Shown in pieces: positions 3,675 through 52,004 of a stretch of DNA of 53,367 bases. Within the stretch, counting starts at the first letter, position 1; each line of letters opens with the position of its first letter. This DNA comes from Opitutus sp. GAS368. GTDB lineage: Bacteria; Verrucomicrobiota; Verrucomicrobiia; Opitutales; Opitutaceae. The translations under genes and the position numbers were made by a program. The stretch covers positions 1 to 53,367 of the forward strand of contig CAMAVZ010000012.1 of the NCBI GenBank assembly GCA_945861645.1. The letters run 5' to 3'. The notes beneath the pieces were generated by a model. It was not told the origin of the DNA. It saw nothing but the letters and a program-made list of their open reading frames with translations, and did not search any database.

Positions 3675-3690
3675 AGCAAGTGTCGGGCCA
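3675..3690 (-). promoter_or_regulatory. Sigma-54 (-24/-12) promoter for the porin gene
   Basis: Minus strand reads TGGCCCGACACTTGCT: GG-N10-GC spacing, close to consensus TGGCACG-N4-TTGCW, ~115 bp upstream of the ATG. Confidence 0.7.
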
Positions 3691-34908: not shown

Positions 34909-36075
34909 ATGCATATTTCGGCTCCACCCTTTAGCGCCTACACTAAAGATAATCCGCTCCCGGCCAAATTATTGGAAAATCGCGTACTCAATAAGGATGG
35001 CTCGAATAAGGACACGCGGCACCTCGTGGTCGATATCGCCGGCAGCGGCCTGACTTATCATGTGGGGGATTCCTTGGGGATATTCGCCTCTAATCGTCCG
35101 CAAATTGTGGAAGAACTGATCGAGCTGATGGGCTTTACCGGTAATGAGCCCGTGATCCCCCAGCGCATGACTGCCGCCATCAGCCTGCGGGAGGCGTTGA
35201 CAACCAAATTATCATTAGCTGGGCCCACCAAGAAAATTCTTGAGACCTTCGCGGCGAAAACGGCCGACTCGAAGGAGCAGGCCCAATTGGCCCGCTTGCT
35301 CGCCGCCGACGCCGCGGAAGTGCGGGAGGCTTTTCTGGAGCAACGGGAGTACATCGATCTGATCGAAGAATTTCCGGGGGTAAAATTAGAGGCGCAGGAA
35401 TTGGTGGCTCACCTGCGTCGGTTGATGCCGCGGCTTTATTCCATCGCCTCCTCCCCCGTCCTTCATCCTAGCCAAGTTCATTTGACCGTCGCCCCAGTGC
35501 GCTATGAGTCCAACGGACGTCGTCGTTATGGGGTTTGCTCAACTTTCTTAGCCGACCGCGTGACGCGGCGAAAGACTCCGATTCCGGTGTTTGTGGCTGA
35601 ATCCCATTTTGGACTGCCTGAGGATTCAACCAAAGATATTATTATGGTTGGGCCCGGCACCGGAGTAGCGCCATTTCGGGCGTTTACGCAGGAGCGGGTG
35701 GCGACTCAGGCCACCGGCCGGAACTGGCTTTTCTTTGGCGACCAGCACGAGGCGACTGATTACCTTTATGCGGAAGAATGGGAAAATTTGCTCGCGGCAG
35801 GAAAACTGGCGCGGGTGGATTTAGCTTTTTCGCGTGACCAAGCGCGCAAGGTTTATGTGCAGGATCGGATGCGTGAAGCCGCGGCAGAATTATGGTCATG
35901 GATCAAGGGTGGGGCCTATTTTTATGTCTGCGGTGATGCCCACCGGATGGCGAAGGATGTCGATCTCGCCTTGCACCAGATCATCAGCGAGCAAGGCGGC
36001 CTCGATGTTGCGCAAGCCGCTGAGTACGTGAAATTGATGAAGAAGGAGAAGCGCTATCAGCGCGACGTGTATTGA
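34909..36075 (+). CDS. CysJ-like FAD/NADPH oxidoreductase (no flavodoxin domain)
   Basis: PRLYSIASS, GVCSTFL, GPGTGVAPFRAF, AFSRDQ..YVQDRM, YVCGDA, RYQRDVY. Confidence 0.88.
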   Translation: MHISAPPFSAYTKDNPLPAKLLENRVLNKDGSNKDTRHLVVDIAGSGLTYHVGDSLGIFASNRPQIVEELIELMGFTGNEPVIPQRMTAAISLREALTTKLSLAGPTKKILETFAAKTADSKEQAQLARLLAADAAEVREAFLEQREYIDLIEEFPGVKLEAQELVAHLRRLMPRLYSIASSPVLHPSQVHLTVAPVRYESNGRRRYGVCSTFLADRVTRRKTPIPVFVAESHFGLPEDSTKDIIMVGPGTGVAPFRAFTQERVATQATGRNWLFFGDQHEATDYLYAEEWENLLAAGKLARVDLAFSRDQARKVYVQDRMREAAAELWSWIKGGAYFYVCGDAHRMAKDVDLALHQIISEQGGLDVAQAAEYVKLMKKEKRYQRDVY

Positions 36076-36114
36076 CAAATTATGCCGGAGTGAGGCTTCA
36101 TGGCGATCGATTCT

Positions 36115-36861
36115 ATGGGACTAACCTTTAATAACAAAATCGCACTCGTGACCGGCGCCGGCCGCGGTATTGGCAAGGCTATTGCCGAAGCATTGGCGAA
36201 AAATGGCGTCAATGTCATTTGCGTCAGCAAGTCAGCTGATAGTTGCGGGGCCACGGCTGCCGCGATCGTTGCGGCTGGCGGCAAGGCCAAGGCTCTGGCG
36301 GTCGATGTGGCTGATGGCGCCGCCGTCGCCAAGGCCAGTGCTGACCTGCTGGCCGAGTACGGGCAGATCGATATTTTGGTTAATAATGCCGGCATTACGC
36401 GGGATGGTCTTTTATTTCGCATGTCCGAGGAGGACTGGAATGCGGTGATCTCGACCAATTTGACCAGTTGCTATCATTGGACCAAATACATTGGCCGCTC
36501 AATGACGCAAAAGCGCTGGGGGCGCATCGTAAATATCACCTCGGTCGTGGGCTTGATGGGTAATGCTGGTCAGGCTAATTATTGCGCGGCTAAGGCCGGT
36601 TTGATCGGTTTTACCAAATCAATCGCGAAAGAATTTGCCGCCCGTAATGTTACTTCAAATGCGGTGGCTCCGGGCTTTATTAAAACGGACATGACTGCCG
36701 CCCTTCCGCCGGAGGTTGCGGATAAGATTACGTCAGTTATCCCGCTCAAACGGCTGGGTGAGGCGATTGATATCGCCCACATGACGACCTTCCTTTGCTC
36801 GGAAGAAGCAGGCTATATTACTGGGCAAGTTTTTACCGTTGACGGGGGGATGGTGATGTGA
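36115..36861 (+). CDS. fabG: 3-oxoacyl-ACP reductase
   Basis: TGAGRGIG, NNAGITRD, GQANYCAAK, APGFIKTDMT; start 36115 or 36100. Confidence 0.95.
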   Translation: MGLTFNNKIALVTGAGRGIGKAIAEALAKNGVNVICVSKSADSCGATAAAIVAAGGKAKALAVDVADGAAVAKASADLLAEYGQIDILVNNAGITRDGLLFRMSEEDWNAVISTNLTSCYHWTKYIGRSMTQKRWGRIVNITSVVGLMGNAGQANYCAAKAGLIGFTKSIAKEFAARNVTSNAVAPGFIKTDMTAALPPEVADKITSVIPLKRLGEAIDIAHMTTFLCSEEAGYITGQVFTVDGGMVM

Positions 36862-36901
36862 TGCCTCTTACCCACCCCTTTTTTGACCACTTATAAAACC
36901 T

Positions 36902-37165
36902 ATGGCTGACCCAAAAACTATCGACCAGCGCGTCAAAGAAATCATCGTTAACCAATTGAATGTTAACGAAGAGCAAATTACCCCACAGGCGTCATTTCTT
37001 GACGACCTCGGAGCCGATTCTCTCGACACAGTCGAGCTGATCATGGCGTTTGAAGAAGAGTTTAAGGATGAAATTAAGGGCGAAATCCCTGAGTCTGATG
37101 CCGAGAAGCTCCAGACCGTCGGCGATGTAACTGCTTACATTGAGGCCAAGGCGGCCAAGAAATAA
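36902..37165 (+). CDS. acpP: Acyl carrier protein
   Basis: [20 protein letters not shown]. Confidence 0.98.
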
Positions 37166-37250
37166 TTTTTGCCTTTGAGCAAAGCGTTCTACCGTCTGGC
37201 CCAGTGCTGGTCTGGTAGGACGCTTTTTCATTTCTACTACTCAATTTAAG

Positions 37251-38501
37251 ATGGAAACTGTTTCTCCGCACAAACGAGTCGTTGTCACCGGTATGGGCGT
37301 CATCGCCTCACTGGGCCATAACGTGGATGATTTTTGGGCTAATCTCCTCGCCGGTAAATGCGGAGTTAACCGAGTCACGCTTTTTGATGCGAAGGATCAC
37401 ACCTGCCAAATTGGGGCAGAAGTTCGCAATTTTGATGCCACCAAGCTGATGGATCCCAAAGAGGTTCGCCGGAATGATCGCTACACGCATTTTGGATTTT
37501 GTGCGGCTAAGCAGGCAGCCGCTGATGCAAAGCTGGATATGAGCAAAGAGGATCCTGATCGGGTCGGCGTGATTATTGGCTCTGGGATTGGCGGCATGTT
37601 GACCATCGAAAATCAGCACAAGATTTTGATGGAACGAGGCCCCCGCAAGGTGTCGCCCTTCATGATTCCTTCGCTGATTAGCAATATGTGCAGTGGCTTG
37701 GTTGCGATTGAGCTCGGGGCTCGTGGGCCGAATTTTTCTATCGTCAGCGCCTGTGCCACCGCGACGCATGCGATCGGCGAGTCACTCCGCATGATTCGTG
37801 GTGGCGAAGCCGATGTGATGGTGTGTGGGGGGGCGGAAGCTTCCATCACTCCATTGGCTTATGCTGGATTTTGCTCCATGAAGGCGATGAGCACCAATAA
37901 TGATAATCCCCAGCAGGCTAGTCGTCCCTTTGATTTGAATCGTGATGGATTTATTATGGCTGAGGGCTCAGGTATTTTGGTGTTAGAAAGCCTAGAGCAT
38001 GCGTTGGCTCGCGGAGCGCGCATCTATTGTGAGATCGCTGGTTATGCCGCGACCTGTGATGCTTTTCATATCACTTCACCTGATCCTGAGGGCAAGGGGC
38101 TATCCCTCGCCATGAGCCGCTCGCTGCATGATGCCCGCATCGCACCAGCGGAAGTCGATTACATCAATGCCCACGGCACTTCGACTCCTTACAACGATAA
38201 ATTTGAGACGCTAGCGATTAAGAAAGTCTTTGGCGACCACGCCCGCAAGGTTTTGATCAGCTCGACTAAGTCAATGACCGGACACTTGCTGGGGGCAGCG
38301 GGCGGCGTTGAGGCGATCGTGAGTATAAAAGCAATTCATACGGGCGAGATACCTCCCACGATTAATCTCGATACACCTGATCCCGATTGCGATTTGGACT
38401 ACGTGCCGAACGTAAAGCGAAGCGCTCGGGTAAATACTGTCATGAGCGATAATCTTGGGTTCGGCGGCCAAAATGCAGCGCTGATTTTCCGCCGAGTCTA
38501 A
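37251..38501 (+). CDS. fabF: Beta-ketoacyl-ACP synthase II
   Basis: [35 protein letters not shown]. Confidence 0.97.
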
Positions 38502-38506
38502 CTGAT

Positions 38507-38545
38507 ACTGATCGGAAACTGAATTGGCCTGGGGGAGGGATTTAA
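38507..38545 (+). repeat. Block-boundary repeat type A, copy 1
   Basis: ACTGATCGGAAACTGAATTGGCCTGGGGGAGGGATTTAA; preceded by an extra ACTGAT at 38501-38506. Confidence 0.9.
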
Positions 38546-38657
38546 CGTCGCAAGAATCGGGAGGGCGTACGGTAAGTCATGGGAATCGTGACGATTCGCG
38601 GGGGCGGAACACTTGCAGACGAGCGGCGGGCCAGCAAAACCGAAGGGACGAATGGCG

Positions 38658-39266
38658 TCACGGCGCCGCCTCGCGCAACGCGCCGCGGGCGCGGTTGAAG
38701 ATCGTGAGTGCGAGCAGCGCGAGTTCAACGGCGAGCAGCCAGTTTGTCCACGCGCCAAGCGCCACCCCACAGCCGCCGAGCAAACCGAGCAAGCCAAATA
38801 CAAATGCCCGATCACTTTTGCCGGCCGGCCCGTCGTAGCGGCGCGACGCGCCGATCTGCACCGCGACCACCCCCGTCATTTCGCTCACGACGGCGAGCAA
38901 CACCACGCCGACCACAAGCGGCGTCGAGATCGCGCCGATGCTGGCGAACGGTAGATAGAGCGCGGCGTCGCTGAGCACATCGCCGATTTCGTTCAGAATC
39001 GCGCCGAGTTTGGATTTTTGCGCAAACTCGCGCGCGAGCACACCGTCGATGGCGTTGAGCGCCATGCGCACGAAGCACACCACCGGCACGGCCAGCAGCA
39101 CGGCGCGCGAGCTCGGTTGCCACCATAGCGCGCCACCCGTCGCTGCCGAGAGCACGAAAGCCGCGACGGTCACCTGGTTTGCGGTCACGCCTGCCGCCGC
39201 GAGCGACCGCACGAGCGGGCGAAGCAGGTTTTGAAACGCGGGCTTGAGCTGGTAGATTGTTGGCAT
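38658..39266 (-). CDS. CDP-alcohol phosphatidyltransferase (YnbA-like)
   Basis: IYQLKPAFQNLLRP, TANQVT, RMALNAIDGVLARE..GAILNEIGD, GKSDRA. Confidence 0.9.
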   Translation of the reverse strand: MPTIYQLKPAFQNLLRPLVRSLAAAGVTANQVTVAAFVLSAATGGALWWQPSSRAVLLAVPVVCFVRMALNAIDGVLAREFAQKSKLGAILNEIGDVLSDAALYLPFASIGAISTPLVVGVVLLAVVSEMTGVVAVQIGASRRYDGPAGKSDRAFVFGLLGLLGGCGVALGAWTNWLLAVELALLALTIFNRARGALREAAP

Positions 39267-39278
39267 GGGCGATTTACT

Positions 39279-39328
39279 GTGGGAGCGGGTTTATCCCGCG
39301 ACGAGTCGGGGCATAAAGCCCCTCCCAC
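39279..39328. repeat. REP pair (REPIN-like, GTGG family)
   Basis: GTGGGAGCGGGTTTATCCCGCGA followed by an inverted GTGGGAGGGGCTTTATGCCCCGA. Confidence 0.75.
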
Positions 39329-39337
39329 CTCGAGTTT

Positions 39338-40288
39338 TCACGGCACGTAGAAATATCGCAGCAGGTGGAAAAACACCGGCGCGGAAAAACAGAGCGAGTC
39401 GATCCGATCCATCATCCCGCCGTGGCCCTCAATCATGGAGCCGTAATCCTTCACGCCGCGATCGCGCTTGATGGCCGACATCACAAGGCCGCCGAAGAAT
39501 CCCATCACCGTGATGAGCAGCGCGAACAGCCCTGCCGCCCACCACGTGAACGGCGTCGCCCACCACAGCGCCGCGCCAAGCGCGCTCGCCGACAGCACGC
39601 CGCCGATGAGGCCTTCCCACGTCTTCGAGGGGCTGAGCACCGGTGCGACCTTATGGCGGCCGAGCAGTTTGCCCCAGACGTATTGGAGGACGTCGCTCGA
39701 CTGGCCGACGAGCACGACGAAGAGGAGCAGCTTCGCGTTTTGCCCCGCGTAGCCGGGAATCTCGATCATCAACAGCGCTGGCACATGGCTCAGGAAATAC
39801 ACGCACACCATCAGGCCCCACTGAATCTTCGCCGTGCGCTCGAGGTAGTGTGCCGCGTCGCCGCCCACCACCGCAAAAATCGCAATCGCGACAAACGCAT
39901 ACACCGGCACAAACACCGCGAAGAACCCATACCACTGGATGCCGGTGAGCACATATTGAAACGGCAACACCATGAAAAACGCCGCGAATAGCGCGAGATG
40001 ATCCGCCGGTCGCGACGGCGTGAGCGTGATGAACTCCCGCAGCGCCATGAACGACATCAGCGCAAACAGCACCACCGAGCCCACCCCACCCGTTACGAGC
40101 GCGAGCGAAAACACGATGACCATCATCCACCACGCGCGCACGCGGGCCGCGAGATTCACGATGGTCGGCGAAGGCCCGTCGGGGCCCGTGCGGCCCACTA
40201 GCACACTTGTGATGATGCTGGAAATCACCAACAACACGAGAATGCCGCCGAGCAGCCAGAGGAGTTGAGGATCGCGCAGGGCCTTCAT
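39338..40288 (-). CDS. Phosphatidate cytidylyltransferase (YnbB-like)
   Basis: RVRAWW, DVLQYVWGKLLG, SPSKTWEG, SAIKRDRGVKD, GHGGMMDRIDS. Confidence 0.92.
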   Translation of the reverse strand: MKALRDPQLLWLLGGILVLLVISSIITSVLVGRTGPDGPSPTIVNLAARVRAWWMMVIVFSLALVTGGVGSVVLFALMSFMALREFITLTPSRPADHLALFAAFFMVLPFQYVLTGIQWYGFFAVFVPVYAFVAIAIFAVVGGDAAHYLERTAKIQWGLMVCVYFLSHVPALLMIEIPGYAGQNAKLLLFVVLVGQSSDVLQYVWGKLLGRHKVAPVLSPSKTWEGLIGGVLSASALGAALWWATPFTWWAAGLFALLITVMGFFGGLVMSAIKRDRGVKDYGSMIEGHGGMMDRIDSLCFSAPVFFHLLRYFYVP

Positions 40289-40911
40289 GGAGTGTGCAGA
40301 GCGACGAGAGCGGCGCGTGCCCGGGCGAGAAACGCCTCCTTGGTTTCTCCGTCGACCGCCGCGAGTGGCGCGCCGATCGCCGCGGTCGCGATGAGCGGCA
40401 CCGGCAGCGCCGTGCCCTTGGGCATGATCCGATTGAGGTTCTCAAGAAACACGGGCACGAGTTTCACGCTCGGCCGCGACCGGGCAAGGTGGTGGATGCC
40501 GGGCTTGAACGCGCCGACCGAGAGTCCATCGCCGCGCGTGCCCTCGGGAAACACGATCAGCGAATCGCCCGCGTCGAGCGCAGCGCACATCGCGGTGATG
40601 GGATTGCACGCGACCGTTACGTGTTTCCGCTCGATCAAAACCGCGCGGAAAATCCCGTAGGCGATGCCGCGGTGCACCGCCGTCTTCTCCCAGTAGTCGC
40701 GTCCCGCGACCGGCCGCGTGCGCTCGCGCCACGCTTCCGGCAGCGCCGCCCACAGTACCGCGAAGTCGAGATGACTGGAATGATTCGCGTAGAAAATGCA
40801 CGGCCCCGAGGTGGGCAGCGCCGCCAGCGGCAGCGGACGCACGCCGCATAAGTTGCGCAAAAAACTCGCCAGGATCCCACGCGAATTACTGATATGAAAC
40901 TGGATTGGCAC
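40285..40911 (-). CDS. Lysophospholipid acyltransferase (PlsC-like); native start appears lost, nearest start is a GTG inside repeat A copy 2
   Basis: YANHSSHLD, RPVAGRDYW, FPEGTR, FKPG motifs; no ATG between the repeat and the catalytic motif. Confidence 0.8.
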   Translation of the reverse strand: MPIQFHISNSRGILASFLRNLCGVRPLPLAALPTSGPCIFYANHSSHLDFAVLWAALPEAWRERTRPVAGRDYWEKTAVHRGIAYGIFRAVLIERKHVTVACNPITAMCAALDAGDSLIVFPEGTRGDGLSVGAFKPGIHHLARSRPSVKLVPVFLENLNRIMPKGTALPVPLIATAAIGAPLAAVDGETKEAFLARARAALVALHTP

Positions 40912-40926
40912 GGGGGAGGGTTTTAA
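40888..40926 (+). repeat. Block-boundary repeat type A, copy 2
   Basis: ACTGATATGAAACTGGATTGGCACGGGGGAGGGTTTTAA. Confidence 0.9.
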
Positions 40927-40927
40927 G

Positions 40928-41083
40928 TTAAAGCCTCTCGTCCCACGCCTACCCTCCCAGCAACTCGTTCTGGTCGAAGCAGCCCTCGATGCTCTGGCTG
41001 CACCGGGCTTCGGCAATGCGCCGTGCAGCGTCCGTGTCCTCGCGGGCGTAGGAAAAAAAGACGGCCTTCGTGGGATCGCTCAT
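40928..41083 (-). pseudogene. Truncated, decayed 5' fragment of a second TIR-domain gene
   Basis: MSDPTKAVFFSYAREDTDAARRIAEARCSQSIEGCFDQNELLGG*AWDERL* aligns with MSESPKAVFLSYARQDTDAAKRIAEALRGFGVEVWFDQAELHGGDAWDAKI; ends at repeat A copy 2. Confidence 0.85.
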
Positions 41084-43458
41084 AACGGCTGGGCGGTTTT
41101 AAGAATTTCTTCGAAGCGCGGGTCGTTTTTCAAGCGAGACCAGAGGGGATCGTGGCGGAATTCGCTCGCGGTCATGGAGCCGAGCTCGGCCATGAGCTTG
41201 CGCAACTCGGCCAGCGCCTCCTCGGGCCGGCCGGTGACGATCAACACCCCGCCGAGGAAGTGGCGCACAAACCCGATGCTGTACTGGTCCAGGTTCTCCT
41301 GCGCGGCCATGGCGGCACGGGCTTCGCGGACGGCCACCTCGGCGCGGCCGGCAAAGGCTTCCGCCTGGGCGATGCCCATCTGCGCCACCGGCAGCTGCCG
41401 GGCGCTCCAGGAGCCCGCGCGGAAATACTTGATGGCCTCGTCGGCGAACTGCCGGGCCTCGTCCGGCCGGCCGAGCAGCCACGCCAGCTTGGCCCGGTGC
41501 AGGCTCACCGGGTCGTTCACGATCCCACTCAGGCCCGGCACGGTGGACCAGCGCGGATCCAGCAGATGCCGGCCCGCCTCGGCAAGATCGCCGGAGTTGA
41601 GGGCGAATTTGTAGGCGGCATCGAGTCCGTAGGGATCGCTGGCCCTCGGCGGCAAGGAGGCAAAGTCGGGAAGATAGGCGGACCGGTCGCCGTCGAGTTC
41701 CTGCCGGGCCAAGAGAGAGTAACGCATGGAGTTGTAATCCCCGATCAGCAACCCGCGGTGCTGGTCAGCGCGGGCCACCACGGCGGCATAACGCCGCATG
41801 GCCATCATCGTCTCGACGAGGCTGCCGAGGCCGCCGGCGTCGTTGGGATTGAGCGCGGCGCTCCGTTCCAGCCGGGCCAGCGCCTCCCCGATCTCACCGA
41901 CCCGGCGATGGGCCAGCGCCATGCGGTATTGGAGCTGCGCATCACTGGGCAGGTCGATCTCCGCGGCGCGATATTTCTCCAGGGCGCCACGCCAGTTGTT
42001 GTTGCAGGTATATTCGAAGGAGCCCTCGGCCAGCCGCACCTCGGGCGAACCCGGCGCCAGGGCACGCGCCTTCTCCAGGGCGGCCAGCGCCTGGGCCCGG
42101 CGTTCGGGCGTGGGGTCGAGCGCGGCGAACCAGAACATGGTGCCATGCGCGATCGAGGCCTGCACGTGCGCTAGGGTGAAGTTGGGATCCAGCGCGGCCG
42201 CCTCCTCGTAAAGCAAGGCGACGCGCTCGTGTTCGGCCCGTATTAAGGAAGAAGTTTGTATTGCCTGGTCGAGGATGCGGGCCCGCAGGTAGAGATCGTA
42301 GGCCTGCTGGTTTTCCGTCGGCCGCCGCGCGATCAGCGTCCGCTCGCCCGCGGTCAGACTGGCCTTCAACGCGGTGGCGATCTCTTGGGTGAGCGCAGCC
42401 TGAATCGCGAAGACGTCAGTGATGTCCTTGCTGTAAGTCTCGGCCCACAGGTGTCCGTCCGTCTGGGCGTCGATTAGCTGCACGTTGAGGCGCACCTTGT
42501 TCCCCGCGCGCTGGACGCTGCCCTCGAGCACGGTCGCGACGCCCAGTTCGGCGGCGATCTTGCGCAGGTTCCGCTGGCCGGTCTTGTAAGGCATGACCGA
42601 GGTACGAGAGATGACCTTCAGGTCGCGGATCTTCGCTAGTGCGGTGATGAGGTCGTCGTGCATGCCGTCGGCGAAAAACTCGTTCTCCTTTTCCGCGCTC
42701 AGGTTGGCGAACGGCAGGACCGCGATGGATTTGCCTGCCACCGCGATCGGCGGCGGAGTGGCAGGTGAGGGTGAAAGTGAAGGGGCTGCAACAGCCGGCG
42801 ACGCGACGGGCGGTTTCGGTTGACGCAAGAAGACGAATCCCACGCCGGCTGCGACCACGAGCGCAACCACCACGGCCCAGATCCAGCTCGGGACGCCGGA
42901 TTTGCGCCCTGCCCGGCTGTCGTCTGTGCCCTGTCGTCCGTCCTCTGATTTCCGGGCGACCTGGCGAAACTCCGGCGGCAGGGTCGGCGGGCGCGGCGGC
43001 TCGGGATTTAGCGCGGGCTTGCGCGGCGGCTCGAGCAGTCGCTTCACCAGCGCGACGAACTCTGGCGTCGGTGCGCCGCCGCTCAGACGTGTCCACTGGT
43101 AGCGCATGAATTCCTCCGGCACGTCGGCGCCGGATTCCGTCGTGTCGTCGATGACGACCGGCACCATGAATGTCCGGCTGCTGCCCATGTCCTGCATGCG
43201 GTCGATGGCGATCTTCCACTCGCGGCGGAAGTAGCCCTCGGCGCGCGCCTCGGTCTGCTGCGAGACTAGCGGCACGAACAGCGCGCATTCGCGGATCTGC
43301 CGGCGGATCTTCGCATCCCAGGCGTCGCCCCCGTGCAGCTCCGCTTGGTCGAACCACACCTCGACGCCGAAACCCCGCAACGCCTCGGCGATGCGCTTGG
43401 CCGCGTCCGTGTCTTGACGAGCGTAACTTAAAAAGACGGCTTTGGGGGATTCGCTCAT
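41080..43458 (-). CDS. TIR-domain membrane protein with TolB-like (SIAVLPF) domain and TPR repeats
   Basis: AVFLSYA..VWFD..GDAW..EGYFRREW TIR; TM WIWAVVVALVV; KSIAVLPFANLS..VISRTS..VLEGSVQR; TPR C-terminus ending DPRF. Confidence 0.9.
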   Translation of the reverse strand: MSESPKAVFLSYARQDTDAAKRIAEALRGFGVEVWFDQAELHGGDAWDAKIRRQIRECALFVPLVSQQTEARAEGYFRREWKIAIDRMQDMGSSRTFMVPVVIDDTTESGADVPEEFMRYQWTRLSGGAPTPEFVALVKRLLEPPRKPALNPEPPRPPTLPPEFRQVARKSEDGRQGTDDSRAGRKSGVPSWIWAVVVALVVAAGVGFVFLRQPKPPVASPAVAAPSLSPSPATPPPIAVAGKSIAVLPFANLSAEKENEFFADGMHDDLITALAKIRDLKVISRTSVMPYKTGQRNLRKIAAELGVATVLEGSVQRAGNKVRLNVQLIDAQTDGHLWAETYSKDITDVFAIQAALTQEIATALKASLTAGERTLIARRPTENQQAYDLYLRARILDQAIQTSSLIRAEHERVALLYEEAAALDPNFTLAHVQASIAHGTMFWFAALDPTPERRAQALAALEKARALAPGSPEVRLAEGSFEYTCNNNWRGALEKYRAAEIDLPSDAQLQYRMALAHRRVGEIGEALARLERSAALNPNDAGGLGSLVETMMAMRRYAAVVARADQHRGLLIGDYNSMRYSLLARQELDGDRSAYLPDFASLPPRASDPYGLDAAYKFALNSGDLAEAGRHLLDPRWSTVPGLSGIVNDPVSLHRAKLAWLLGRPDEARQFADEAIKYFRAGSWSARQLPVAQMGIAQAEAFAGRAEVAVREARAAMAAQENLDQYSIGFVRHFLGGVLIVTGRPEEALAELRKLMAELGSMTASEFRHDPLWSRLKNDPRFEEILKTAQPL

Positions 43459-43607
43459 GTCAGGGATTTGCTCCCGGATTTTTTAGCCATGAAATGGCAC
43501 GAAGGGGTACGAAAAGAGAAATTCTGCAGGAAGGGCGAGTCGAGCCTAATCACACCCCCACGCCCTGCGGGCATTAGCCTTCGCCCAAGCGCTACGGCCC
43601 GACAACT

Positions 43608-43646
43608 ACTGATCGGAAACTGGATTGGTCTAGGGGCGAGTTTTAT
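43608..43646 (+). repeat. Block-boundary repeat type A, copy 3
   Basis: ACTGATCGGAAACTGGATTGGTCTAGGGGCGAGTTTTAT. Confidence 0.9.
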
Positions 43647-44971
43647 TTATTTTTCTTCGCATTCCCGGCGGGGGCGTCGGGCGCGCTGGCGGGAGCTTGC
43701 TCGGCGCTCCATTTGTCCCACATCGCCTGCAATTCTTTGACCTTCGTGGGCTGGGCCGCGGCGAGGTCTTTCGATTCACCGATATCGGCGGCGAGGTCGT
43801 AAAGTTCGGGCTGCCCGCTGCCGCCGCGGGCGACAACGAGCTTCATGTCGCCGTGACGAATCGCCCACTGCGGGCCGTAGCGCCAGTAGAGGGTTTGATG
43901 TGGACGGGAGTTTTTTGCGCCGGTGAGAAACGGCATCAGGTCGACGCCGTCGATTTGCCACGACGCCTCGGGTTTACCGCCGGCAGCGATGATCGCCGTG
44001 GGCAACACGTCGAGATTCATCACCGGGAGGTCGGAGGTTTTTCCCGCGGGGATCTTGCCTTTCCACTGCGCGATGAACGGAACCCGCGTGCCGCCCTCGA
44101 ACGTGGTCATCTTGAACCCGCGCAGCGGGCCGTTGGAGGAGGTAATGCTCTGGGTCGGTCCGCCGTTGTCGGAAATGAAGAAGATGAGCGTATTTTCTTC
44201 CTGTCCGAGCTCGCGGATTTTTCCGAGGACGCGGCCCACGGCGTCATCCATGGCCGACATCATGGCGGCAAAGGTCTTTCGTTTTTCGTCCGTGATGCCG
44301 GGGAAACGGTAGAGATACTTTTTCGTGGCTTGGAGGGGGGCATGGACGGCGTTGAAAGGGAGATAGAGAAATCGGGGCTTGTCTTTATTTTGCTCCAACC
44401 AGTCAACCGCGCGGTCGGCATAGGCGTCGGTGGTGTAAAACGCGTCGTCCTTCACCTCGCGCACGTCGTTCGAGAGGCGCGAGTCGACAAAATTGGTGGG
44501 ATGAAAAAACGGCGTGTTGTTGAGCGTGCCGAAGAATTCGTCGAAGCCGCGCTTCGTGGGGCGGTTCTCGGGCTGGTTACCGAGGTGCCACTTACCGATC
44601 GCGGCCGTGGCGTAGCCGAGGGCTTTTAGGCGGGTCGCCAGAGTGGTCTGGTCGGCGCGCAGGCCAACGGCATTGGCCACCGTGTTGAATTCGTGACCGA
44701 AGCGCGTGGGGTAACGGCCCGTCATAAGGCCGGCGCGTGATGGGCTGCAATAGGTCGCGGCAACGTAGCCGTTGGTGAAGCGCAGGCCGTTCTGGGCAAG
44801 CGAATCGATATGGGGCGTCGGAATATCTCGGGCAAAGCCCTGCGCGGTGATTTCGCCCCAACCGAGGTCGTCGGCGTAAAAGATAATGACGTTGGGCGGG
44901 GACGCCGCGCCGGAGCAGAGCGAGCTGAGAAGACCAAGGCCGAAAACAAGACGAAGGAAACCGAATTTCAT
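43643..44971 (-). CDS. Secreted formylglycine-dependent sulfatase (S1)
   Basis: PNVIIFYADDLG, CSPSRAGLMTGRY, GKWHLG, SDNG; stop codon lies inside repeat A copy 3. Confidence 0.93.
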   Translation of the reverse strand: MKFGFLRLVFGLGLLSSLCSGAASPPNVIIFYADDLGWGEITAQGFARDIPTPHIDSLAQNGLRFTNGYVAATYCSPSRAGLMTGRYPTRFGHEFNTVANAVGLRADQTTLATRLKALGYATAAIGKWHLGNQPENRPTKRGFDEFFGTLNNTPFFHPTNFVDSRLSNDVREVKDDAFYTTDAYADRAVDWLEQNKDKPRFLYLPFNAVHAPLQATKKYLYRFPGITDEKRKTFAAMMSAMDDAVGRVLGKIRELGQEENTLIFFISDNGGPTQSITSSNGPLRGFKMTTFEGGTRVPFIAQWKGKIPAGKTSDLPVMNLDVLPTAIIAAGGKPEASWQIDGVDLMPFLTGAKNSRPHQTLYWRYGPQWAIRHGDMKLVVARGGSGQPELYDLAADIGESKDLAAAQPTKVKELQAMWDKWSAEQAPASAPDAPAGNAKKNK

Positions 44972-45026
44972 TGGAAGGGTGAGGTTGGGCGAACCGGTGA
45001 ATGACGGCCAGCGAGCCCGATGGTTA

Positions 45027-45079
45027 CGCGTCAGTTTGAATAAAATCTTCTCCCGAGTGCGCCGGCGCGGGGGCTTTAA
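45027..45079 (+). repeat. Block-boundary repeat type B, copy 1
   Basis: CGCGTCAGTTTGAATAAAATCTTCTCCCGAGTGCGCCGGCGCGGG then GGCTTTAA; matches 46535-46579. Confidence 0.85.
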
Positions 45080-45163
45080 AGTGGTTCATGATTTTAGCTG
45101 AAGAGGAATGAGGAGACTACCTGTCCACAACCCATTTGGGTTTGGTGTCATGCGTCTCTTTTC

Positions 45164-45233
45164 ACAGGAGGAAACGGAGAGAACAGAGAAAGGCATCAGG
45201 ATCTACGCCTCAGTTTCCTCCGCTTTTTCCTGT
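45164..45233. repeat. Imperfect inverted repeat (REP/MITE-like) downstream of the desaturase
   Basis: ACAGGAGGAAACGGAGAGAACAGAG ... CTCAGTTTCCTCCGCTTTTTCCTGT. Confidence 0.65.
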
Positions 45234-45253
45234 AAGAACGGATTGGTTCTGAT

Positions 45254-46258
45254 TCAGTCCCGGTGCTCACCCGCCAGCTTGGCGCCTTCGCCATCGGGGA
45301 GGCCGTCGCGGAAGGTGCCGAACCACCGGTCGAAGGGGATGACGCTGTCGCCGTAGTTGCACTCAAAATAGCGGTGGTGGAGATAGTGAAAATACGAGCC
45401 CGTGGGCCATTTGCCGTCGGCGATCGGTCCCTCGAAGCCGTGGTGCGAACCCGCCGGCCCGAGCGCCGCGTGCTGCATCGTGAAGATGAAGTGGAACGGG
45501 TGCGACGGCACCACCAAGTGGATCAAACCCACGCTAAGGTAGAGAGTCGTCTCGACGGGGTGCATCGCCATGCCCGACCAGGGGATCGGGTTGACGTTTT
45601 TGTGGTGTAGGTAGTGGACGCGGTGGTAGATCGGCTTCCAGTGGATGAACCGGTGCACCCAGTAGAAATGAAATTCCCTCCAGAACGGGATGACGAACAG
45701 CCACGCCACGAACCACACGGGATGCCGCGCCCAGTCGAGGTACGGGATGTGGTGGTTCGCATACAGCCAGAGCGTCAGCACCTCGTAGCCCGTCCACACG
45801 AGCAGCGCGACGCCGGACGTCCAGAAGATGTTGTCGTAAACCTGGTCGCCAAAGAGGAACTGCCGGCTTTTCTGCGCGGGCCAGCGGGCGTCGTATTTGC
45901 CCTTCGTGCCCTGGCGCCGGAGCGTGTAGAGATAGAGATGATAGGCGCCGTAATAGAGCCACATCAGGACGAGATTGCGCACATAGACCTGGCCGATCCA
46001 GCCGGCCTCGAAGTGGACGCAGCGGGGGAGGGCGGGCTGCGTGAGGTACCAGGAACCGCCCGCGATGGAGAGCAGCAGGAGGTTACGCGGCCACATGAAG
46101 CCCGGGTTCGAGACCACCCACTTCAGCATCGCGCCCAACCGGAGCGGCCACTTGAAGACCGGAGCATAGCGGATGGGGTAGGGCGGACGCCACTCACCGC
46201 GGGCGTTGCGCGTCTCGGGCGAAGACGATTCCGCGGCGGGCAAGGGGTTTACCGACAT
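45254..46258 (-). CDS. Sterol desaturase / fatty-acid hydroxylase family protein
   Basis: His boxes FYWVHRFIH, HYLHH, HHG, FHYLHH..NYG. Confidence 0.9.
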   Translation of the reverse strand: MSVNPLPAAESSSPETRNARGEWRPPYPIRYAPVFKWPLRLGAMLKWVVSNPGFMWPRNLLLLSIAGGSWYLTQPALPRCVHFEAGWIGQVYVRNLVLMWLYYGAYHLYLYTLRRQGTKGKYDARWPAQKSRQFLFGDQVYDNIFWTSGVALLVWTGYEVLTLWLYANHHIPYLDWARHPVWFVAWLFVIPFWREFHFYWVHRFIHWKPIYHRVHYLHHKNVNPIPWSGMAMHPVETTLYLSVGLIHLVVPSHPFHFIFTMQHAALGPAGSHHGFEGPIADGKWPTGSYFHYLHHRYFECNYGDSVIPFDRWFGTFRDGLPDGEGAKLAGEHRD

Positions 46259-46368
46259 GGGGCCGATGTTGGAAAAGCCGCGGGCTCAGACAAGGCCGCA
46301 AATGCTCCCAGACTTTGATCGTTGTAGGAAATTACGCGAAACGGCGCGAATCTATCAGGCGATTGATT

Positions 46369-46407
46369 ACTGATCGAAAACTGGATTGGCATGGGCGAGG
46401 GGTTTAA
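46369..46407 (+). repeat. Block-boundary repeat type A, copy 4
   Basis: ACTGATCGAAAACTGGATTGGCATGGGCGAGGGGTTTAA. Confidence 0.9.
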
Positions 46408-46481
46408 GGGGAGCTTGGTTTTCGTTACCGCTTAATCAAGTTGATATAGCCGTAGCTCTCGTGGGTGAGGCCGATCATGTG

Positions 46482-46523
46482 ACTGATCGGGAACTGGATT
46501 GGCCTAGGCGGCGAGATCTTCAA
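46482..46523 (+). repeat. Block-boundary repeat type A, copy 5 (degenerate 3' part)
   Basis: ACTGATCGGGAACTGGATTGGCCTAGGCGGCGAGATCTTCAA. Confidence 0.85.
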
Positions 46524-46534
46524 ACTTACTCTAG

Positions 46535-46579
46535 CGCGTCAGTTTGAATAAAATCTTCTCCCGAGCGGGCCGGCGCGGG
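46535..46579 (+). repeat. Block-boundary repeat type B, copy 2
   Basis: CGCGTCAGTTTGAATAAAATCTTCTCCCGAGCGGGCCGGCGCGGG; first 31 bp identical to copy 1. Confidence 0.85.
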
Positions 46580-46758
46580 CGATAACGACGACATACCATG
46601 GGCGACGCAAAGTAAGGGGTCGGACCAACCCTGTGGAAACAGACTGCGTAGGGTGATGATGAAGGCAAAATTGCTGCCTATGACTTGCCTAAACCTTGCG
46701 CGGGAGGGGCGAGCGCGGGGCAGGGATTTATGAAATTACCGAAAGAATAAATTCCCCG

Positions 46759-46788
46759 TTGACGCGCCATTGCGCCGCCCTTTTAACT
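46759..46788 (+). promoter_or_regulatory. Putative sigma-70 promoter of tRNA-Phe
   Basis: TTGACG, 18-bp spacer, TTAACT, 16 bp upstream of the tRNA. Confidence 0.55.
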
Positions 46789-46804
46789 CGGCCCTTTAGT
46801 GAAT

Positions 46805-46880
<76 letters not shown>

Positions 46881-46982
46881 CTTTCAGGGTTGGCAGCGGC
46901 TGCGCCGTTCGGCCGCTAAGCGGCCGGTTTCGGAATCCTGATGCCTTGGCCTGGCGGCCTCGGGTTCTCGCTTCGCTCGGAA

Positions 46983-47001
46983 CCGAGACTTGCCACCACT
47001 T
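46983..47001 (+). repeat. Direct repeat of the tRNA-Phe 3' end (att-like)
   Basis: CCGAGACTTGCCACCACTT vs CCGAGACTCGCCACCACTT (46865-46883), 18/19 identical. Confidence 0.85.
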
Positions 47002-47489
47002 GACATACAATAATTTAAGTGTTTTTAAGTTGTTACAAAAGAAGTATGTATCGAGACTGGCTTGGCAAGTAACGTGGAAACCCAGTCGGATTTCCCATGC
47101 GATGGCACCTCTGATAAGACTGTTTATCCGGGGCATTTCCCGCTGGCAATTCAGTCTGCGAGCGACGCCTAAAAGACCTTAGAATGGCCCTAGGATGCGA
47201 TTTGCAGGCCATCTGGTCTGCCGTTCTAGGGGCAGAGGGGCGGGGGGGCAACCTCGCCTGCTGGTTGAAACTCATAATCAATCCACCCGCTCCCTAAAAT
47301 TTAATTACAAAGGGGCAAGCCGGGGATGCGGATGCATCAGGTGATTCCCGCAGCCTCCTTTAATTTTAAAAAATGGGGCAAAGGGGCCGCTGGGGGATTG
47401 GACTCGTACTATTCCGTCAAAAGTGGAGCATATATTACGTCTACCTCATTGTGACTGACTTAAGAGTAATCTAAACCCACCGCTGATTT

Positions 47490-48014
47490 ATGAAAAAATG
47501 GATATCTAAAAGCATGCTGATTTTTGCTGCTCTGTTGTTAATTTTTAAACGCAAACGCTAACGACACCATCACTATTCCATAAGGCACTGAAGTGAGAAT
47601 TCGTTTTAACGAAAAACTGTCATCTGAAACATCTATTGAGGGCGATGTATTTTCTATTCAGGTCGAAGACGACGTTGAGCTAGACGGAAAGACAGTTATC
47701 CTCGCAGGAACTAAAGAAAAGGGAGAGGTAACATCGGCTTAAAAAAAGGATTTGTAGGGAAAGCGGGCGAATTAAATATTTGCCTAACCCATATTAAAGT
47801 AGGCGATAAAAAAGTCCGAATCAGGGCAAACAAAAGTAAAGTTGGTGACAGTAAATTAGGAACATCAGTAGCACTTACCTTAATCCTTGGCCCATTAGGC
47901 TTACTAAAAAGAGGCAAAGATATAGCCATCACGGAGGGGCAAACAGTACTCGCCTTTGTTGATGATGATACTGTGGTCCCATTCCCACCTCCAAAAATCC
48001 CGAAGGGGAACTAA
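47490..48014 (+). pseudogene. Disrupted AT-rich gene for a secreted beta-rich protein (TrbI/VirB10-like fold by resemblance)
   Basis: MKKWISKSMLIFAALLLI, frameshift, then NANANDTITIP*GTEVRIRFNEKLSSETSIEGDVF..EVTSA*KKGFVGKAGEL..GPLGLLKRGKDI..AFVD..GN*. Confidence 0.7.
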
Positions 48015-48251
48015 GGGTTAAGTCTATTCGAGTATTCATCCATAGATTACAAAGGGCACAAAAGACGTGCTGGTTGTTGAGTCTAACCATCAAACGCCAA
48101 CGCTCTTTTGTCTGCGGGACAAGTTGGAAAAACTCCTGCCACGTTTGAGTTAGCGAGAAAAAATACACTGACCGTAAAAATTTCCCTGCCAGCGGACTTT
48201 ACATCGCACCACCATTCGGACGGGTCTCGATGCCTTTTGGGAATCTAATAT

Positions 48252-51200
48252 ATGAGAACTAAAAACCTGATCTTACTAATTTTAGTTCTGCTGGGCGGAG
48301 CCCTCTTCATCCACCGACTCAAACCGGTTAAACCAAGCGCGCCAAAGCCAATCGCTACCAATAAAGCCGTCGATCCTGCTCAACAACCCTCAGCCCCCAC
48401 TTTTACCGCCCCGGTCATCCCTGCTGCCGCTCCACGCACCACTTTTACCGCCCCGGTCATCCCTGCTGCCGCTCCACACACCGCTTCCACCGCAACAACT
48501 GAAACCGACAAAATTCTGGCCGCTATTCCCGAAGGCCCCTTCAGGGAAAGCCTCATGCAAATTGTCGGGACCGCGAGAAATCAAGCCCTCACAAAACTGA
48601 TCCAGTTCAACCCGCCCAAAGAGGACTACGCCAGCCTCCGCGCCGACCAAAAAGGCGACCTCTTCTACGTCTGTAACCTTCCTCCTGAAGCCGCTCAAGC
48701 CGTCCAACCGATTCAAGACGAAACCACTGCCGTTGCCGCTCCCATTACCGGCGAAGCCGCCGTCCCTGTTGCTACCCCACCGGTTCGGCATTCGCGCCCC
48801 GGCTCCGCAAACGTTTTGTATCTCGATTTTAACGGCCACACCATCACCGGCACCACCTGGAATAGAGCCTCCACCAATCGACCCGCCGTAACCACCTACA
48901 GCGCCCTACCTTTCGATCTCGACAGCGACCCCACTACATTTAGCGACGCCGAACAAGCCTTCATTATCCAAGTCTGGGAACGCGTCGCCGAAGATTTCGC
49001 CCCGTTCAACCTCGACGTAACCACCGAAGAACCCGCCAATTTCACCAGCACCACCGGACGCGCCGTAATCACCAAAAGCACTGATGCCAACGGCGTCCTC
49101 ATGCCCAGCAGCACCGCCGGCGGCGTCGCCTACCTTGGCGTGTTCGGCGACCCACTCTACGCTACCGAAAAATCCCCTGCCTTCGTCTATTACAGAGATA
49201 ACCAGAATGCCGGCATCATCGCCGAAAAGACCGCGCACGAATTCGGCCACAACCTCGGCCTCTCCCACGACGGCACCACAAGTGGTAGCGAGTATTATAA
49301 CGGGCACGGCACCGGCGAAACCTCCTGGGGCCCACTCATGGGCACCGGTTATAACCGCAACGTCTCCCAATGGTGCAAAGGCGAATATTACTTGGCCAAT
49401 AACACCCAGGACGACCTCGCCATCATCGGCACCAAATGCCCACTCATCCCCGATGACGCCGGTAATACCATCGCCACCGCCATCCCGCTACCGGTTACAA
49501 GTGGTTCGTTCTCGATCACCGGACGCTTCAGCAACGCCACCGACATCGACCTCTATCGCGTAACCCTCCCAGCCGGCACCACCAATTTCTCCGTCGCCGG
49601 CTATCGTGCCGCGAGCGCCACCAACGGCGGCAACACCGATATCAAACTCGACCTCCTCGACAGTACCGACACCGTTCTCTTCTCCAACGATCTCCTCGAC
49701 GGCACACGAGCTGCACTCTCCTACACCGTGACCGCTGGCAACTACTACGTACGCCTCACTCCTGCCGGTGCCGGCAACCCCCTTTCCGCCACTCCGACCG
49801 GCTACACCACGTACGGCTCCATCGGACAATACACCCTGGCCGGCGCCAGCGTCACCCCCTCCGTCTCTGCCTTCACGACACACCCCGCCACTCAAACCGT
49901 TTACGCCACCGCCAGCGTCAGCTTTGACGTCGTCGCCACCGGCGCGCCCACGCCCACCTACCAGTGGAAATTCAACGGCAACGCCATTTCCGGAGCAACC
50001 AGCACCCGTTACACCATTGCCTCCACGGTCAACACGGACGCCGGAGCCTACACTGTCAGCGCAACCAATAGCCAGGGCACAACCACCAGCTTCACGGCCA
50101 CCCTGACCGTTACGCCCGCCATCACCCCCGCCATCACCACCCAACCCGTTTCACTGACCGTCACCGTCGGCAACAGCGCCACCTTCACCGTCGTCGCCAC
50201 AGGCGGGCCCGCCCCCACCTACCAGTGGAAACTCAACGGTACCGCCGTCCTAGGCGCCACCAACGCCACCTACACGATCGCAAGCACGGGCACAGGTAAT
50301 GCGGGCAGTTATACGGTGGTCGCTACTAATAGTAGTGGCACCGCCACTTCCTCTGCCGCAAGTCTTACGGTCAATCCAGCCCCGCCCGTTTTACCGCCGA
50401 CCCAAATGGTTATCACGGGCAAGACGGTCGCCCTGGGGATCGTCACTAGCACCACCGGCACGATCAAGTGGCAGGTGTCCACCGACAGTGGTTCGACCTA
50501 CACCGACCTCGCGGACAATGCGACTTACCGTGGCACCACGACAGCGGTCCTCGAGATCTTGCAGGCCACAAATGCCCTCAACAATAATCGCTACCGTTAT
50601 CAAGTAACCCTCAGTGGGCAAACCACTGCCAGTACGGCCACTACGCTGAGTGTTAAGCCGGCGTATTTACTGATGCCCGTGGGGATCAAAATTGATTCGG
50701 CGAACAATTTGTATGTCACCGACGCGGCCGCTCAGGTGGTTGTTAAAATCACGAGTGATTTCAAAATCGCCAGTCTCGCCGGCACCGCCATCGCCATGGG
50801 TTCCGCCGATGGCACGGGCACGGTCGCCCGCTTTAATGAACCGACTGACCTCGTGATCAACGACGATGGCAGCTTTCTCTTAACGGATACTAGCAATGCC
50901 TCCTTGCGCAAAGTGACGACCGCCGGCGTGGTCACAACTTTCGCGGGCACGAGTGGCAGCAAAGGCAGCGCGGATGGCACCGGCGCCGCGGCGCGCTTTT
51001 CTGCTCCTGTCGGCATTACCCGCGATACGGCGGGCAACGTTTACGTGGCGGACCAAACCAATCACGTGATTCGTCGTATCACTCCCGCGGGAGTTGTCAC
51101 CACCCTCGCCGGCACCGCCGGCACGGTGGGCTCCACCGACGGCACGGGCGCTGCGGCGCGCTTTAATTTGCCCACAGGAGTGGCGATGAATTCTGCCGAC

Positions 51201-52004
51201 CTACTCTACGTCGCTGATTTTGGCAGCCACACCCTGCGTAAAGTTACGAGCTCAGGCGTCGTGACGACGTTTGCCGGTACGGCGGGAACCAGTGGCTCTG
51301 TTGACGGCACCGGCACCGCGGCGCGCTTTAATAAACCAAGTGGTCTGGCGCTCGATACGGCGGGCAATCTTTACGTCGCCGATACCGGTAATTCTACGGT
51401 GCGCAAAGTTTCTCCAGCGGGAGTCGTCACCACCCTCGCCGGTTTATCCGCAATTGCTGGGTTGAAGGACGGTACGGGCGCACTGGCCTGGTTCAATGAA
51501 CCGGAAGGCGTGACCGCTGATGCCTCGGGTAATCTTTACCTCGCTGATACGGGCAATGCGGTGATCAGAAAAATTACCCCGGCAGGAGTGGTCACGACGC
51601 TCACGCTTACAGGTACGGTCCCAGTGATTACGACGCAGCCCGCGAGTGTCTCGGTCACGACGGGGAGTTCGGCTTCCCTGAGTGTTACCGCCAGCGGCGA
51701 CGGGGTCCTTACTTATCAATGGAAGAAAGACGGCACGGATGTTTCCGGCGCCACGACGGCAACCTATGCGATCAGTGCAACGAGTTCGACCTCGGCGGGA
51801 AGTTACACGGTGGTGGTCAGTAATTTTCTGGGGTCAGTCACGAGTTCGGCCGCTACGTTGACGGTCAATGCCGCGCCGGCCCCGCCTACGACCCCCCCCA
51901 GTAGTGGTGGCGGTGGCGGCGGCGGAGGTGGTGCGCCGAGCTATGGATTTCTCGCGCTCCTCGCGCTCTGGGCCTGGCGCCGTCGGCAGAGCTCGGTGGC
52001 TTGA
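48252..52004 (+). CDS. Large surface protein: zinc metallopeptidase domain, Ig-like domains, NHL repeats, GlyGly-CTERM-like anchor
   Basis: YLDFNG, HEFGHNLGLSHD metzincin motif; ITTQP..YQW..GSYTV Ig repeats; GSADGTGAAARF..YVAD NHL repeats; GGGGGGA-hydrophobic-RRR tail. Confidence 0.9.
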   Translation: MRTKNLILLILVLLGGALFIHRLKPVKPSAPKPIATNKAVDPAQQPSAPTFTAPVIPAAAPRTTFTAPVIPAAAPHTASTATTETDKILAAIPEGPFRESLMQIVGTARNQALTKLIQFNPPKEDYASLRADQKGDLFYVCNLPPEAAQAVQPIQDETTAVAAPITGEAAVPVATPPVRHSRPGSANVLYLDFNGHTITGTTWNRASTNRPAVTTYSALPFDLDSDPTTFSDAEQAFIIQVWERVAEDFAPFNLDVTTEEPANFTSTTGRAVITKSTDANGVLMPSSTAGGVAYLGVFGDPLYATEKSPAFVYYRDNQNAGIIAEKTAHEFGHNLGLSHDGTTSGSEYYNGHGTGETSWGPLMGTGYNRNVSQWCKGEYYLANNTQDDLAIIGTKCPLIPDDAGNTIATAIPLPVTSGSFSITGRFSNATDIDLYRVTLPAGTTNFSVAGYRAASATNGGNTDIKLDLLDSTDTVLFSNDLLDGTRAALSYTVTAGNYYVRLTPAGAGNPLSATPTGYTTYGSIGQYTLAGASVTPSVSAFTTHPATQTVYATASVSFDVVATGAPTPTYQWKFNGNAISGATSTRYTIASTVNTDAGAYTVSATNSQGTTTSFTATLTVTPAITPAITTQPVSLTVTVGNSATFTVVATGGPAPTYQWKLNGTAVLGATNATYTIASTGTGNAGSYTVVATNSSGTATSSAASLTVNPAPPVLPPTQMVITGKTVALGIVTSTTGTIKWQVSTDSGSTYTDLADNATYRGTTTAVLEILQATNALNNNRYRYQVTLSGQTTASTATTLSVKPAYLLMPVGIKIDSANNLYVTDAAAQVVVKITSDFKIASLAGTAIAMGSADGTGTVARFNEPTDLVINDDGSFLLTDTSNASLRKVTTAGVVTTFAGTSGSKGSADGTGAAARFSAPVGITRDTAGNVYVADQTNHVIRRITPAGVVTTLAGTAGTVGSTDGTGAAARFNLPTGVAMNSADLLYVADFGSHTLRKVTSSGVVTTFAGTAGTSGSVDGTGTAARFNKPSGLALDTAGNLYVADTGNSTVRKVSPAGVVTTLAGLSAIAGLKDGTGALAWFNEPEGVTADASGNLYLADTGNAVIRKITPAGVVTTLTLTGTVPVITTQPASVSVTTGSSASLSVTASGDGVLTYQWKKDGTDVSGATTATYAISATSSTSAGSYTVVVSNFLGSVTSSAATLTVNAAPAPPTTPPSSGGGGGGGGGAPSYGFLALLALWAWRRRQSSVA
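48397..48477 (+). repeat. In-frame 42-bp-period tandem duplication (TFTAPVIPAAAP x2)
   Basis: CCACTTTTACCGCCCCGGTCATCCCTGCTGCCGCTCCAC at 48397 and 48439. Confidence 0.9.

Follow-up and report, generated by a model that had tools for sequence, protein, structure and literature searches.

Organization of the fabF/tRNA-Phe locus

The window, that is, the whole 53,367-nt stretch of Opitutus sp. GAS368 DNA that was analyzed (genome G000), carries a mosaic of gene blocks and short repeats between fabF and tRNA-Phe (Table 1). Five copies of a 43-nt repeat were found within 8 kb, all on the minus strand. Read along that strand from tRNA-Phe (itself on the plus strand), the order is copy 5, copy 4, a fatty-acid hydroxylase gene, a sulfatase gene, copy 3, a 146-nt leader, a TIR–TPR gene, a TIR stump, copy 2, three lipid genes encoding an acyltransferase, CdsA and a CDP-alcohol phosphatidyltransferase, copy 1 and finally the stop codon of fabF, which is on the plus strand. 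Since all five copies lie on one strand, none was found elsewhere in the 2.3-Mb assembly and a reversed control pattern gave no matches in it, the repeat is not a chance occurrence. A search with Rfam over positions 36000–49000 detected tRNA-Phe alone and no family at the repeat. The idea that the repeat is a copy of the tRNA 3' end, as in tandem islands, was discarded: no likeness was seen by eye, and the array is located 5' of the tRNA.

Table 1. Features of the fabF/tRNA-Phe locus (window coordinates).
Feature	Position	Strand	Remarks
fabF	37251..38501	plus	Conserved left flank of insertion
Repeat copy 1	38504..38546	minus	Two bases off fabF stop codon; right edge of 8.1-kb insertion
Acyltransferase (PF01553), CdsA (39338–40288) and CDP-alcohol phosphatidyltransferase (38658–39266) block	38658..40884	minus	
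Repeat copy 2	40885..40927	minus	Left edge touches TIR remnant, right edge touches acyltransferase start
TIR stump	40928..41083	minus	52-codon decayed 5' remnant of second gene of TIR–TPR pair
TIR–TPR gene, intact	41080..43458	minus	792 aa; TIR_2 residues 8–130 and TPR repeats
Leader	43459..43604	minus	Native upstream region of TIR–TPR gene, 146 nt
Repeat copy 3	43605..43647	minus	First bases overlap sulfatase stop codon (43643–43645)
Fatty-acid hydroxylase (45254–46258) and sulfatase (43643–44971) block	43643..46258	minus	
Repeat copy 4	46366..46408	minus	108 nt upstream of fatty-acid hydroxylase gene
Repeat copy 5	46481..46508	minus	Core only, 2 mismatches; nearest tRNA-Phe
tRNA-Phe	46805..46880	plus	Conserved right flank; adjoins fabF in 7 relatives

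The corresponding locus was fetched from eight relatives. In seven of them (G004, G019, G008, G022, G023, G012 and G020), the interval is empty, with 17–270 nt between the 3' end of fabF and tRNA-Phe and no repeat between them. Relative to G004, positions 38502–46620 of the window (8.1 kb) are extra. On this comparison, we interpret the ≈8.1 kb of unrelated gene blocks as an insertion, bounded by five solo ends of the kind described below. The eighth locus, G016:C37, has an array of its own adjoining fabF, and G044:C8 has one adjoining tRNA-Phe. The genes in these two arrays differ from those in G000 and include DHDPS-like, HpcH aldolase, MFS transporter, glycosyltransferase and heparinase-like genes. 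The repeat copy in G044 ends 13 nt ahead of the DHDPS-like gene, whose counterpart in G016 is preceded by a laminin-G-like gene.

The block edges do not respect the genes. The initiating Met of acyltransferase homologues aligns to an AAT at 40887–40885, in the right edge of copy 2, showing that the acyltransferase has lost its ATG together with its native upstream region. The nearest in-frame starts are a TTG at 40861–40859 and a GTG further in, and expression of the three-gene lipid operon is uncertain from the sequence. G016:C37 retains the last ≈45 nt of the phosphatidyltransferase gene, a 112-nt spacer and a diverged repeat copy, joined on the left to unrelated DNA; at the same place, G000 has the whole 2.3-kb operon. 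The alignment thus indicates that the units in G000 and G016:C37 have a common right end and different left ends. The stop codon of the sulfatase, a TAA, lies inside the first bases of copy 3 (43643–43647). We considered that this gene, too, had been cut at copy 3, but homologues align to residues ≈425–433 of 442 and the gene is essentially whole; the final dozen residues may be derived from the junction.

Contigs from public lake and freshwater sequencing runs (four runs from four studies) cover the whole stretch. These contigs bridge copy 1, copy 2 with the stump (record 25 of X6, spanning 38300–41956, and record 11 of X12, spanning 39046–41112) and copy 3 (record 4 of X1 and record 26 of X6). 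The same junctions were present in two metagenome contigs described below (L180 and L183) and in contigs from other studies, showing that they are not an assembly artefact. Direct joining of two repeat copies was seen in no contig from the four runs, in which rare forms would be invisible, and the result has no bearing on excision. The joints listed in these contigs had short sides (21–32 letters) and lay inside genes.

A remnant of a second TIR gene

The intact TIR–TPR protein matches TIR_2 with an E value of 1.3e-20, and a hydrophobic stretch in it was read by eye as a putative membrane segment. G019 and G020 have TIR genes whose upstream regions align with the last ≈70 nt of the leader.

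The stump starts at an ATG (41083–41081, minus strand) that overlaps the TGA of the TIR–TPR gene as ATGA, and its frame reads MSDPTKAVFFSYAREDTDAARRIAEARCSQSIEGCFDQNELLGG*AWDERL*, where asterisks are stop codons. The first of these is a TAG at codon 45 (40951–40949), and the frame ends with a TAA at codon 52 (40930–40928), flush against copy 2. An earlier note on this DNA had described a second TIR gene that begins at the ATGA, carries a nonsense codon and ends at copy 2, and every detail of that description was correct. Over the first 51 codons, the stump aligns ungapped with the TIR–TPR gene, with identity at 102 of 153 nt and 31 of 51 amino acids, and a protein search of its own genome recovers it (E 1e-11) aligned to the first 52 residues of the TIR–TPR gene product. 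Less than half of the TIR_2 domain (PF13676) is covered, and the homology is interrupted by the stop codons. The 3' remainder of the gene was absent from the assembly by protein search. The sequence therefore identifies the stump as the 5' part of a gene that was second in a tandem, translationally coupled TIR–TPR pair.

This front end is a decaying pseudogene. The upstream TIR–TPR gene has Asp at the place of the TAG, and the second TIR genes of two metagenome contigs, L181 and L182, have GAG, a single change away. In addition, the conserved Trp35 has been replaced by Cys, and further changes separate strains: 6 of the 40 variant places listed from the public-run contigs fall inside the 156-nt stump, a density in line with relaxed constraint.

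Tandem arrays of 2–8 TIR genes are common in the genus, where we counted 41 TIR starts at 10 loci in 8 genomes. At least 4 of the 24 starts that were examined overlap the stop codon of a long upstream gene. G000 itself has the TIR–TPR gene, the stump, one distant TIR gene and no others.

Metagenome relatives of the TIR block

A scan of metagenomes yielded five informative contigs (L180, L181, L182, L183 and L186). The nearest from other lineages were L181 and L182, 82% and about 90% identical to the window, respectively. Both retain the ATGA overlap, and in both the second TIR gene extends beyond the point of truncation; in L181 it is intact, encoding 796 aa with TIR_2 and TPR domains. The 43-nt repeat was found in neither contig. 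Homology between the window and L181 extends to position 40941, 14 nt short of the repeat. These contigs bear out the proposal of the earlier note that the block was cut from a donor tandem array of TIR genes at a position that ignores gene ends, since the comparison it called for led into a continuing second TIR gene and no repeat.

Alternatively, the TIR–TPR gene could have had its first 150 nt duplicated locally, with no donor array involved. A 77-nt direct repeat with 75% identity does link 41007–41083 with 43382–43458. However, the stump is closer to the second TIR gene of L181 (118 of 153 nt and 35 of 51 amino acids) than to its own upstream gene, it shares with that gene the gene-2-specific residues SQ and FDQNEL, and both L181 and L182 retain the ATGA coupling. 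The stump is thus not a local duplicate, and we give this origin hardly any credence.

L180 and L183 are 97–97.5% identical to the window and colinear with it over the stump and copy 2, TAG included, and the colinearity of L183 reaches copy 1 as well. The order of TIR fragment, repeat and acyltransferase gene is identical in both. We read these contigs as members of the same population and not as donors. Truncation and repeat occurred together only in such 97%-identical contigs, so that what might have spoken against a donor array, namely donors with the same truncation and repeat, was seen only within what we take to be this population. No near-identical donor of the TIR block was found in the metagenome comparison.

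One contig, L186 (positions 1–3877), has a different arrangement. It carries the 3' end of the TIR–TPR gene at 97% identity and diverges from the window at the first base past the stop codon, continuing with ≈450 nt of unrelated DNA and a convergent gene for an 879-aa TonB-dependent receptor (Plug domain). Neither the TIR stump nor the repeat was found in it. L186 may show the gene in an earlier context, may have undergone a deletion or may be a chimeric contig, and it counts against the capture mechanism that we favor below.

The repeat as the right end of an IS91-family element

The repeat was searched for as a pattern in 65 genomes of the genus, allowing up to 3 mismatches, and matched in 24. 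We set aside 11 genomes with a lone 3-mismatch match each; nine of these matches were another sequence, CCCATCCAGTT..., and two were single unrelated sequences. The remaining 13 genomes have convincing copies, often 0.4–3 kb apart, in one orientation and often at contig ends. The core, AATCCAGTTTCC[G/T]ATCAGTA, is conserved between species and has a sharp end. To its left is an extension of 20–45 nt that starts with AAACCCC and is constant inside one genome. In each genome, the solo copies have fixed left and right boundaries and agree with the copy that is linked to an element in the same genome.

Upstream of the first copy in G072:C23, G066:C250 and G046:C20 is a gene with the domains PF04986 (Y2_Tnp) and PF14319 (Zn_Tnp_IS91). 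The G066 protein scored 143.1 bits against the NCBIfam model for "IS91 family transposase" (NF033538; cut-off 125). Transposase homologues with at least 59% identity were present in 9 genomes, 7 of which are among the 13 repeat-bearing ones. A wider scan, with one genome per species, gave 78 transposase loci. In nine of the 12 closest (56–100% identity), the core AATCCAGTTTCC[G/T]ATCAG follows on the same strand, ≈180–260 nt past the gene match (413 nt in L105). Two of the other three loci end too early, and L109 is without the core; none of the 12 has it on the opposite strand. A related right-end core is found at the same position in five distant homologues with 35–41% identity, from Planctomycetota and others (L135, L158, L160, L172 and L177), three of them with AATCAAATTTCCTATCAGTA and the other two with a form that has 4 mismatches. 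From these comparisons, we conclude that the repeat is the solo right end, that is, the oriIS side, of an IS91-family element.

The left ends of the IS91-family elements in the relatives are different sequences, and terminal inverted repeats are absent. The AAACCCC motif at the left of the solo copies was considered as a possible left end of the element, but it was absent upstream of the transposase genes. On the right, ...ATCA is followed by GTNN in 36 of 40 copies, and by GTAA in 21 of the 40. Targets of the IS91 family are tetranucleotides of the CTTG/GTTC type next to the right end. The accessible text of PMC13181058 states that they invariably have T at position 2, a possible likeness to the copies described here, although with GTAA so frequent the GTNN bases may belong to the element itself. 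No empty site was found for the single copy in G045, with which relatives share the yebC side alone, so that neither its exact boundaries nor its target could be read.

Folded as DNA over the repeat itself, outside the ≈135-nt spacer of full elements, five copies, two of them transposase-adjacent, showed no hairpin potential (z 0.0 to 1.2, not better than shuffles). No IS91-type transposase was found in G000, whose assembly is 84% complete, either by a search for homologues or by a Pfam search, the latter of which gave no match in its control genomes either.

Two other roles for the repeat were weighed against this identification. A role as promoter or operator of co-regulated genes, with the stump an unrelated pseudogene, would fit the copies that lie 0–147 nt upstream of three gene starts in G000. 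However, no gene lies downstream of copy 1, which is directed at the 3' end of the convergent fabF, the genes between copies in G072:C28 are on the opposite strand, and the motif is linked with transposase genes; we consider regulation the least credible of all the readings. Alternatively, the repeat might be the attachment site of some integron-like site-specific recombination, with the blocks as cassettes. The same-orientation repeats that bound the blocks, the hotspot beside a tRNA gene and the varying contents of G000, G016 and G044 would all fit. Nevertheless, no integrase or recombinase was present among the ORFs of at least 100 aa scanned in the 53-kb window, the repeat lacks inverted repeats and hairpin potential, the block boundaries cut genes and the same sequence is a conserved IS91-family end across phyla, which together make such a system very improbable.

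The blocks between the solo ends of G072:C28 (93000–109876) include a Phd/YefM–PIN toxin–antitoxin pair as well as genes for an ECF sigma factor, a flavin monooxygenase and an MFS transporter. Some of the genes are on the other strand than the repeats.

Proposed capture of left-flanking DNA

In IS91, the transposase gene lies between terIS and oriIS; in the IS91 family, rolling-circle transposition starts at oriIS and copies towards terIS, and termination fails in 1–10% of events, so that DNA past the left end is carried along, according to the portion of PMC13181058 available to us. For IS801 of Pseudomonas syringae, the corresponding portion of PMC3189936 describes miniature right-end fragments in 26% of events and the carriage of partial left-flank genes of 290–1431 nt.

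We think that the TIR stump and the solo ends are probably best explained by one-ended rolling-circle capture, leftwards from an IS91 right end. In a donor array, a miniature right end would first have inserted within the second TIR gene. With an IS91-type transposase acting in trans, rolling-circle copying would then have started at this end, moving left through what is now the stump, the whole TIR–TPR gene and its upstream region before stopping, and the captured unit would have joined the growing array between fabF and tRNA-Phe. Because such copying would take along only what lies on the left of the end, the remainder of the second TIR gene would have stayed behind, which would explain its absence. 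We favor this mechanism because the stump directly adjoins a solo end on the left, because the 3' remainder of the second TIR gene is absent and because the unit includes the TIR–TPR gene with its native leader. The nested left ends of the G016 and G000 units on a common right end are also consistent with one-ended transposition.

Several observations weigh against one-ended capture, in addition to L186: no transposase was found in the genome, no hairpin in the folded copies, no near-identical donor among the metagenome contigs and no recognizable ter-like tetranucleotide at the left edges of the blocks. The oriIS of both IS91 and IS801 has subterminal palindromes, and 82 bp is the tested functional minimum of the IS91 right end. 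As the solo ends measure 43–66 nt and lack hairpins, they may be dead products that do not function as origins.

The main rival is that solo IS91 ends served as portable homology, through which the array was built and shuffled by homologous recombination. The miniature end in the second TIR gene would have recombined with a copy upstream of the acyltransferase operon, deleting or swapping the DNA between them; both partner copies could have been in the same genome, or incoming DNA could have brought one. Within copy 4, at 46399, homology begins between G000 and G004:C75 or G016:C93, a break that recombination inside the repeat would explain no less well than transposition. Another direct repeat, 45 nt long (45027–45071 and 46535–46579; 43 of 45 positions identical, with sharp edges), brackets copies 5 and 4 and the hydroxylase gene, and has these two occurrences only in the window and the fetched loci. 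Integration of a circle by recombination would be expected to leave such a pair, and the 45-nt repeat may be a scar of this kind; alternatively, a terminator-like stretch may have been duplicated. Both the break in copy 4 and the 45-nt pair favor the recombination model. Moreover, copies 5 and 4 are common to G000 and G044, which diverge right after copy 4, the solo ends are without palindromes, and in the accessible text of PMC3189936 the authors conclude that most IS801 fragments in P. syringae genomes arose by reorganization and act as recombination regions. On the other hand, 43 nt with 74–89% identity would make a poor RecA-type substrate, and recombination by itself explains neither the same orientation of all copies in the cluster nor the presence of blocks at a site that is empty in seven relatives. 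We consider the recombination model unlikely, though a serious competitor to one-ended capture.

The window also contains a near-perfect 42-nt tandem duplication (48397–48480, 98% identical) near the 5' end of a gene for a 1250-aa NHL/Ig-repeat protein (48252–52004).

Relation to known systems

As far as IS801 and IS91 are described in the accessible parts of PMC3189936 and PMC13181058, the system described here resembles them in the IS91-family transposase of the relatives' elements, in having two different ends with the right end downstream of the transposase gene, in solo right-end copies with a common right terminus and a fixed left terminus, and in the probable mobilization of variable left-flanking DNA, partial genes included. 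It differs in that the solo ends are 43–66 nt long and lack palindromes, whereas the IS801 fragments given in the same text of PMC3189936 measure 229–679 nt. Same-orientation arrays here bound several unrelated gene blocks at a single chromosomal site. Unlike IS801 and IS91, which were described in P. syringae and Escherichia coli, these arrays are in a freshwater bacterium of the Opitutaceae (Verrucomicrobiota), in whose genome no transposase was found.

In the ISCR28/sul4 "sandwich" of two sequential oriIS, genes likewise lie between successive oriIS copies, and ISCR capture also disregards gene boundaries, as the available part of PMC12772301 describes them. In contrast to ISCR, the locus lacks resistance genes and is not linked to class 1 integrons. 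The transposase of G066 scored 144 bits against the ISCR clade Ia model (cut-off 925) and is thus not an ISCR of that clade. Integron cassettes are similar in forming a one-orientation array of blocks with a repeated site between them at a fixed chromosomal place, but here no integrase was present among window ORFs of at least 100 aa, the repeat is without an attC-like fold, and the blocks contain multiple genes along with native upstream regions and stumps of genes. The contrast drawn in the earlier note between precise integron cassettes and the capture of chromosomal fragments is upheld by these results, and the IS91-family right end supplies a known mechanism for capture that disregards gene boundaries.

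Most likely, then, the array is the result of gene capture of the known IS91/IS801/ISCR kind and not a new cassette system, with its novelty in its form and its host. A known mechanism accounts for the repeat-bounded mosaic, and no new cassette system is needed. IS91-family capture has so far been known mostly from resistance and virulence genes in Proteobacteria. Here, it probably shapes a core chromosomal region in an environmental verrucomicrobial genus, and the cargo consists of lipid-metabolism genes, a sulfatase and a TIR gene from a family that forms large tandem arrays. Should these very short solo ends be active, an IS91-type origin could be smaller than the minimum known at present.

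A bolder proposal, which we hold to be doubtful, is that the 43–66-nt solo ends are no debris but functional sites at which freshwater Opitutaceae capture genes into the chromosome, served by an IS91-type HUH transposase in trans and with the fabF/tRNA-Phe site as the hotspot of this platform. If true, multi-gene blocks would be added or exchanged by minimal ends that lack the palindromes thought necessary for oriIS, and the platform would correspond to an integron that works by rolling-circle transposition, with defense-like TIR genes also among its cargo. A limited literature search turned up no description of such arrays in Verrucomicrobiota, which does not establish their absence from print.

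Similar arrays may exist outside Verrucomicrobiota, judging from the distant homologues. L135 has three same-strand copies of the core, 2.5–3.8 kb apart.
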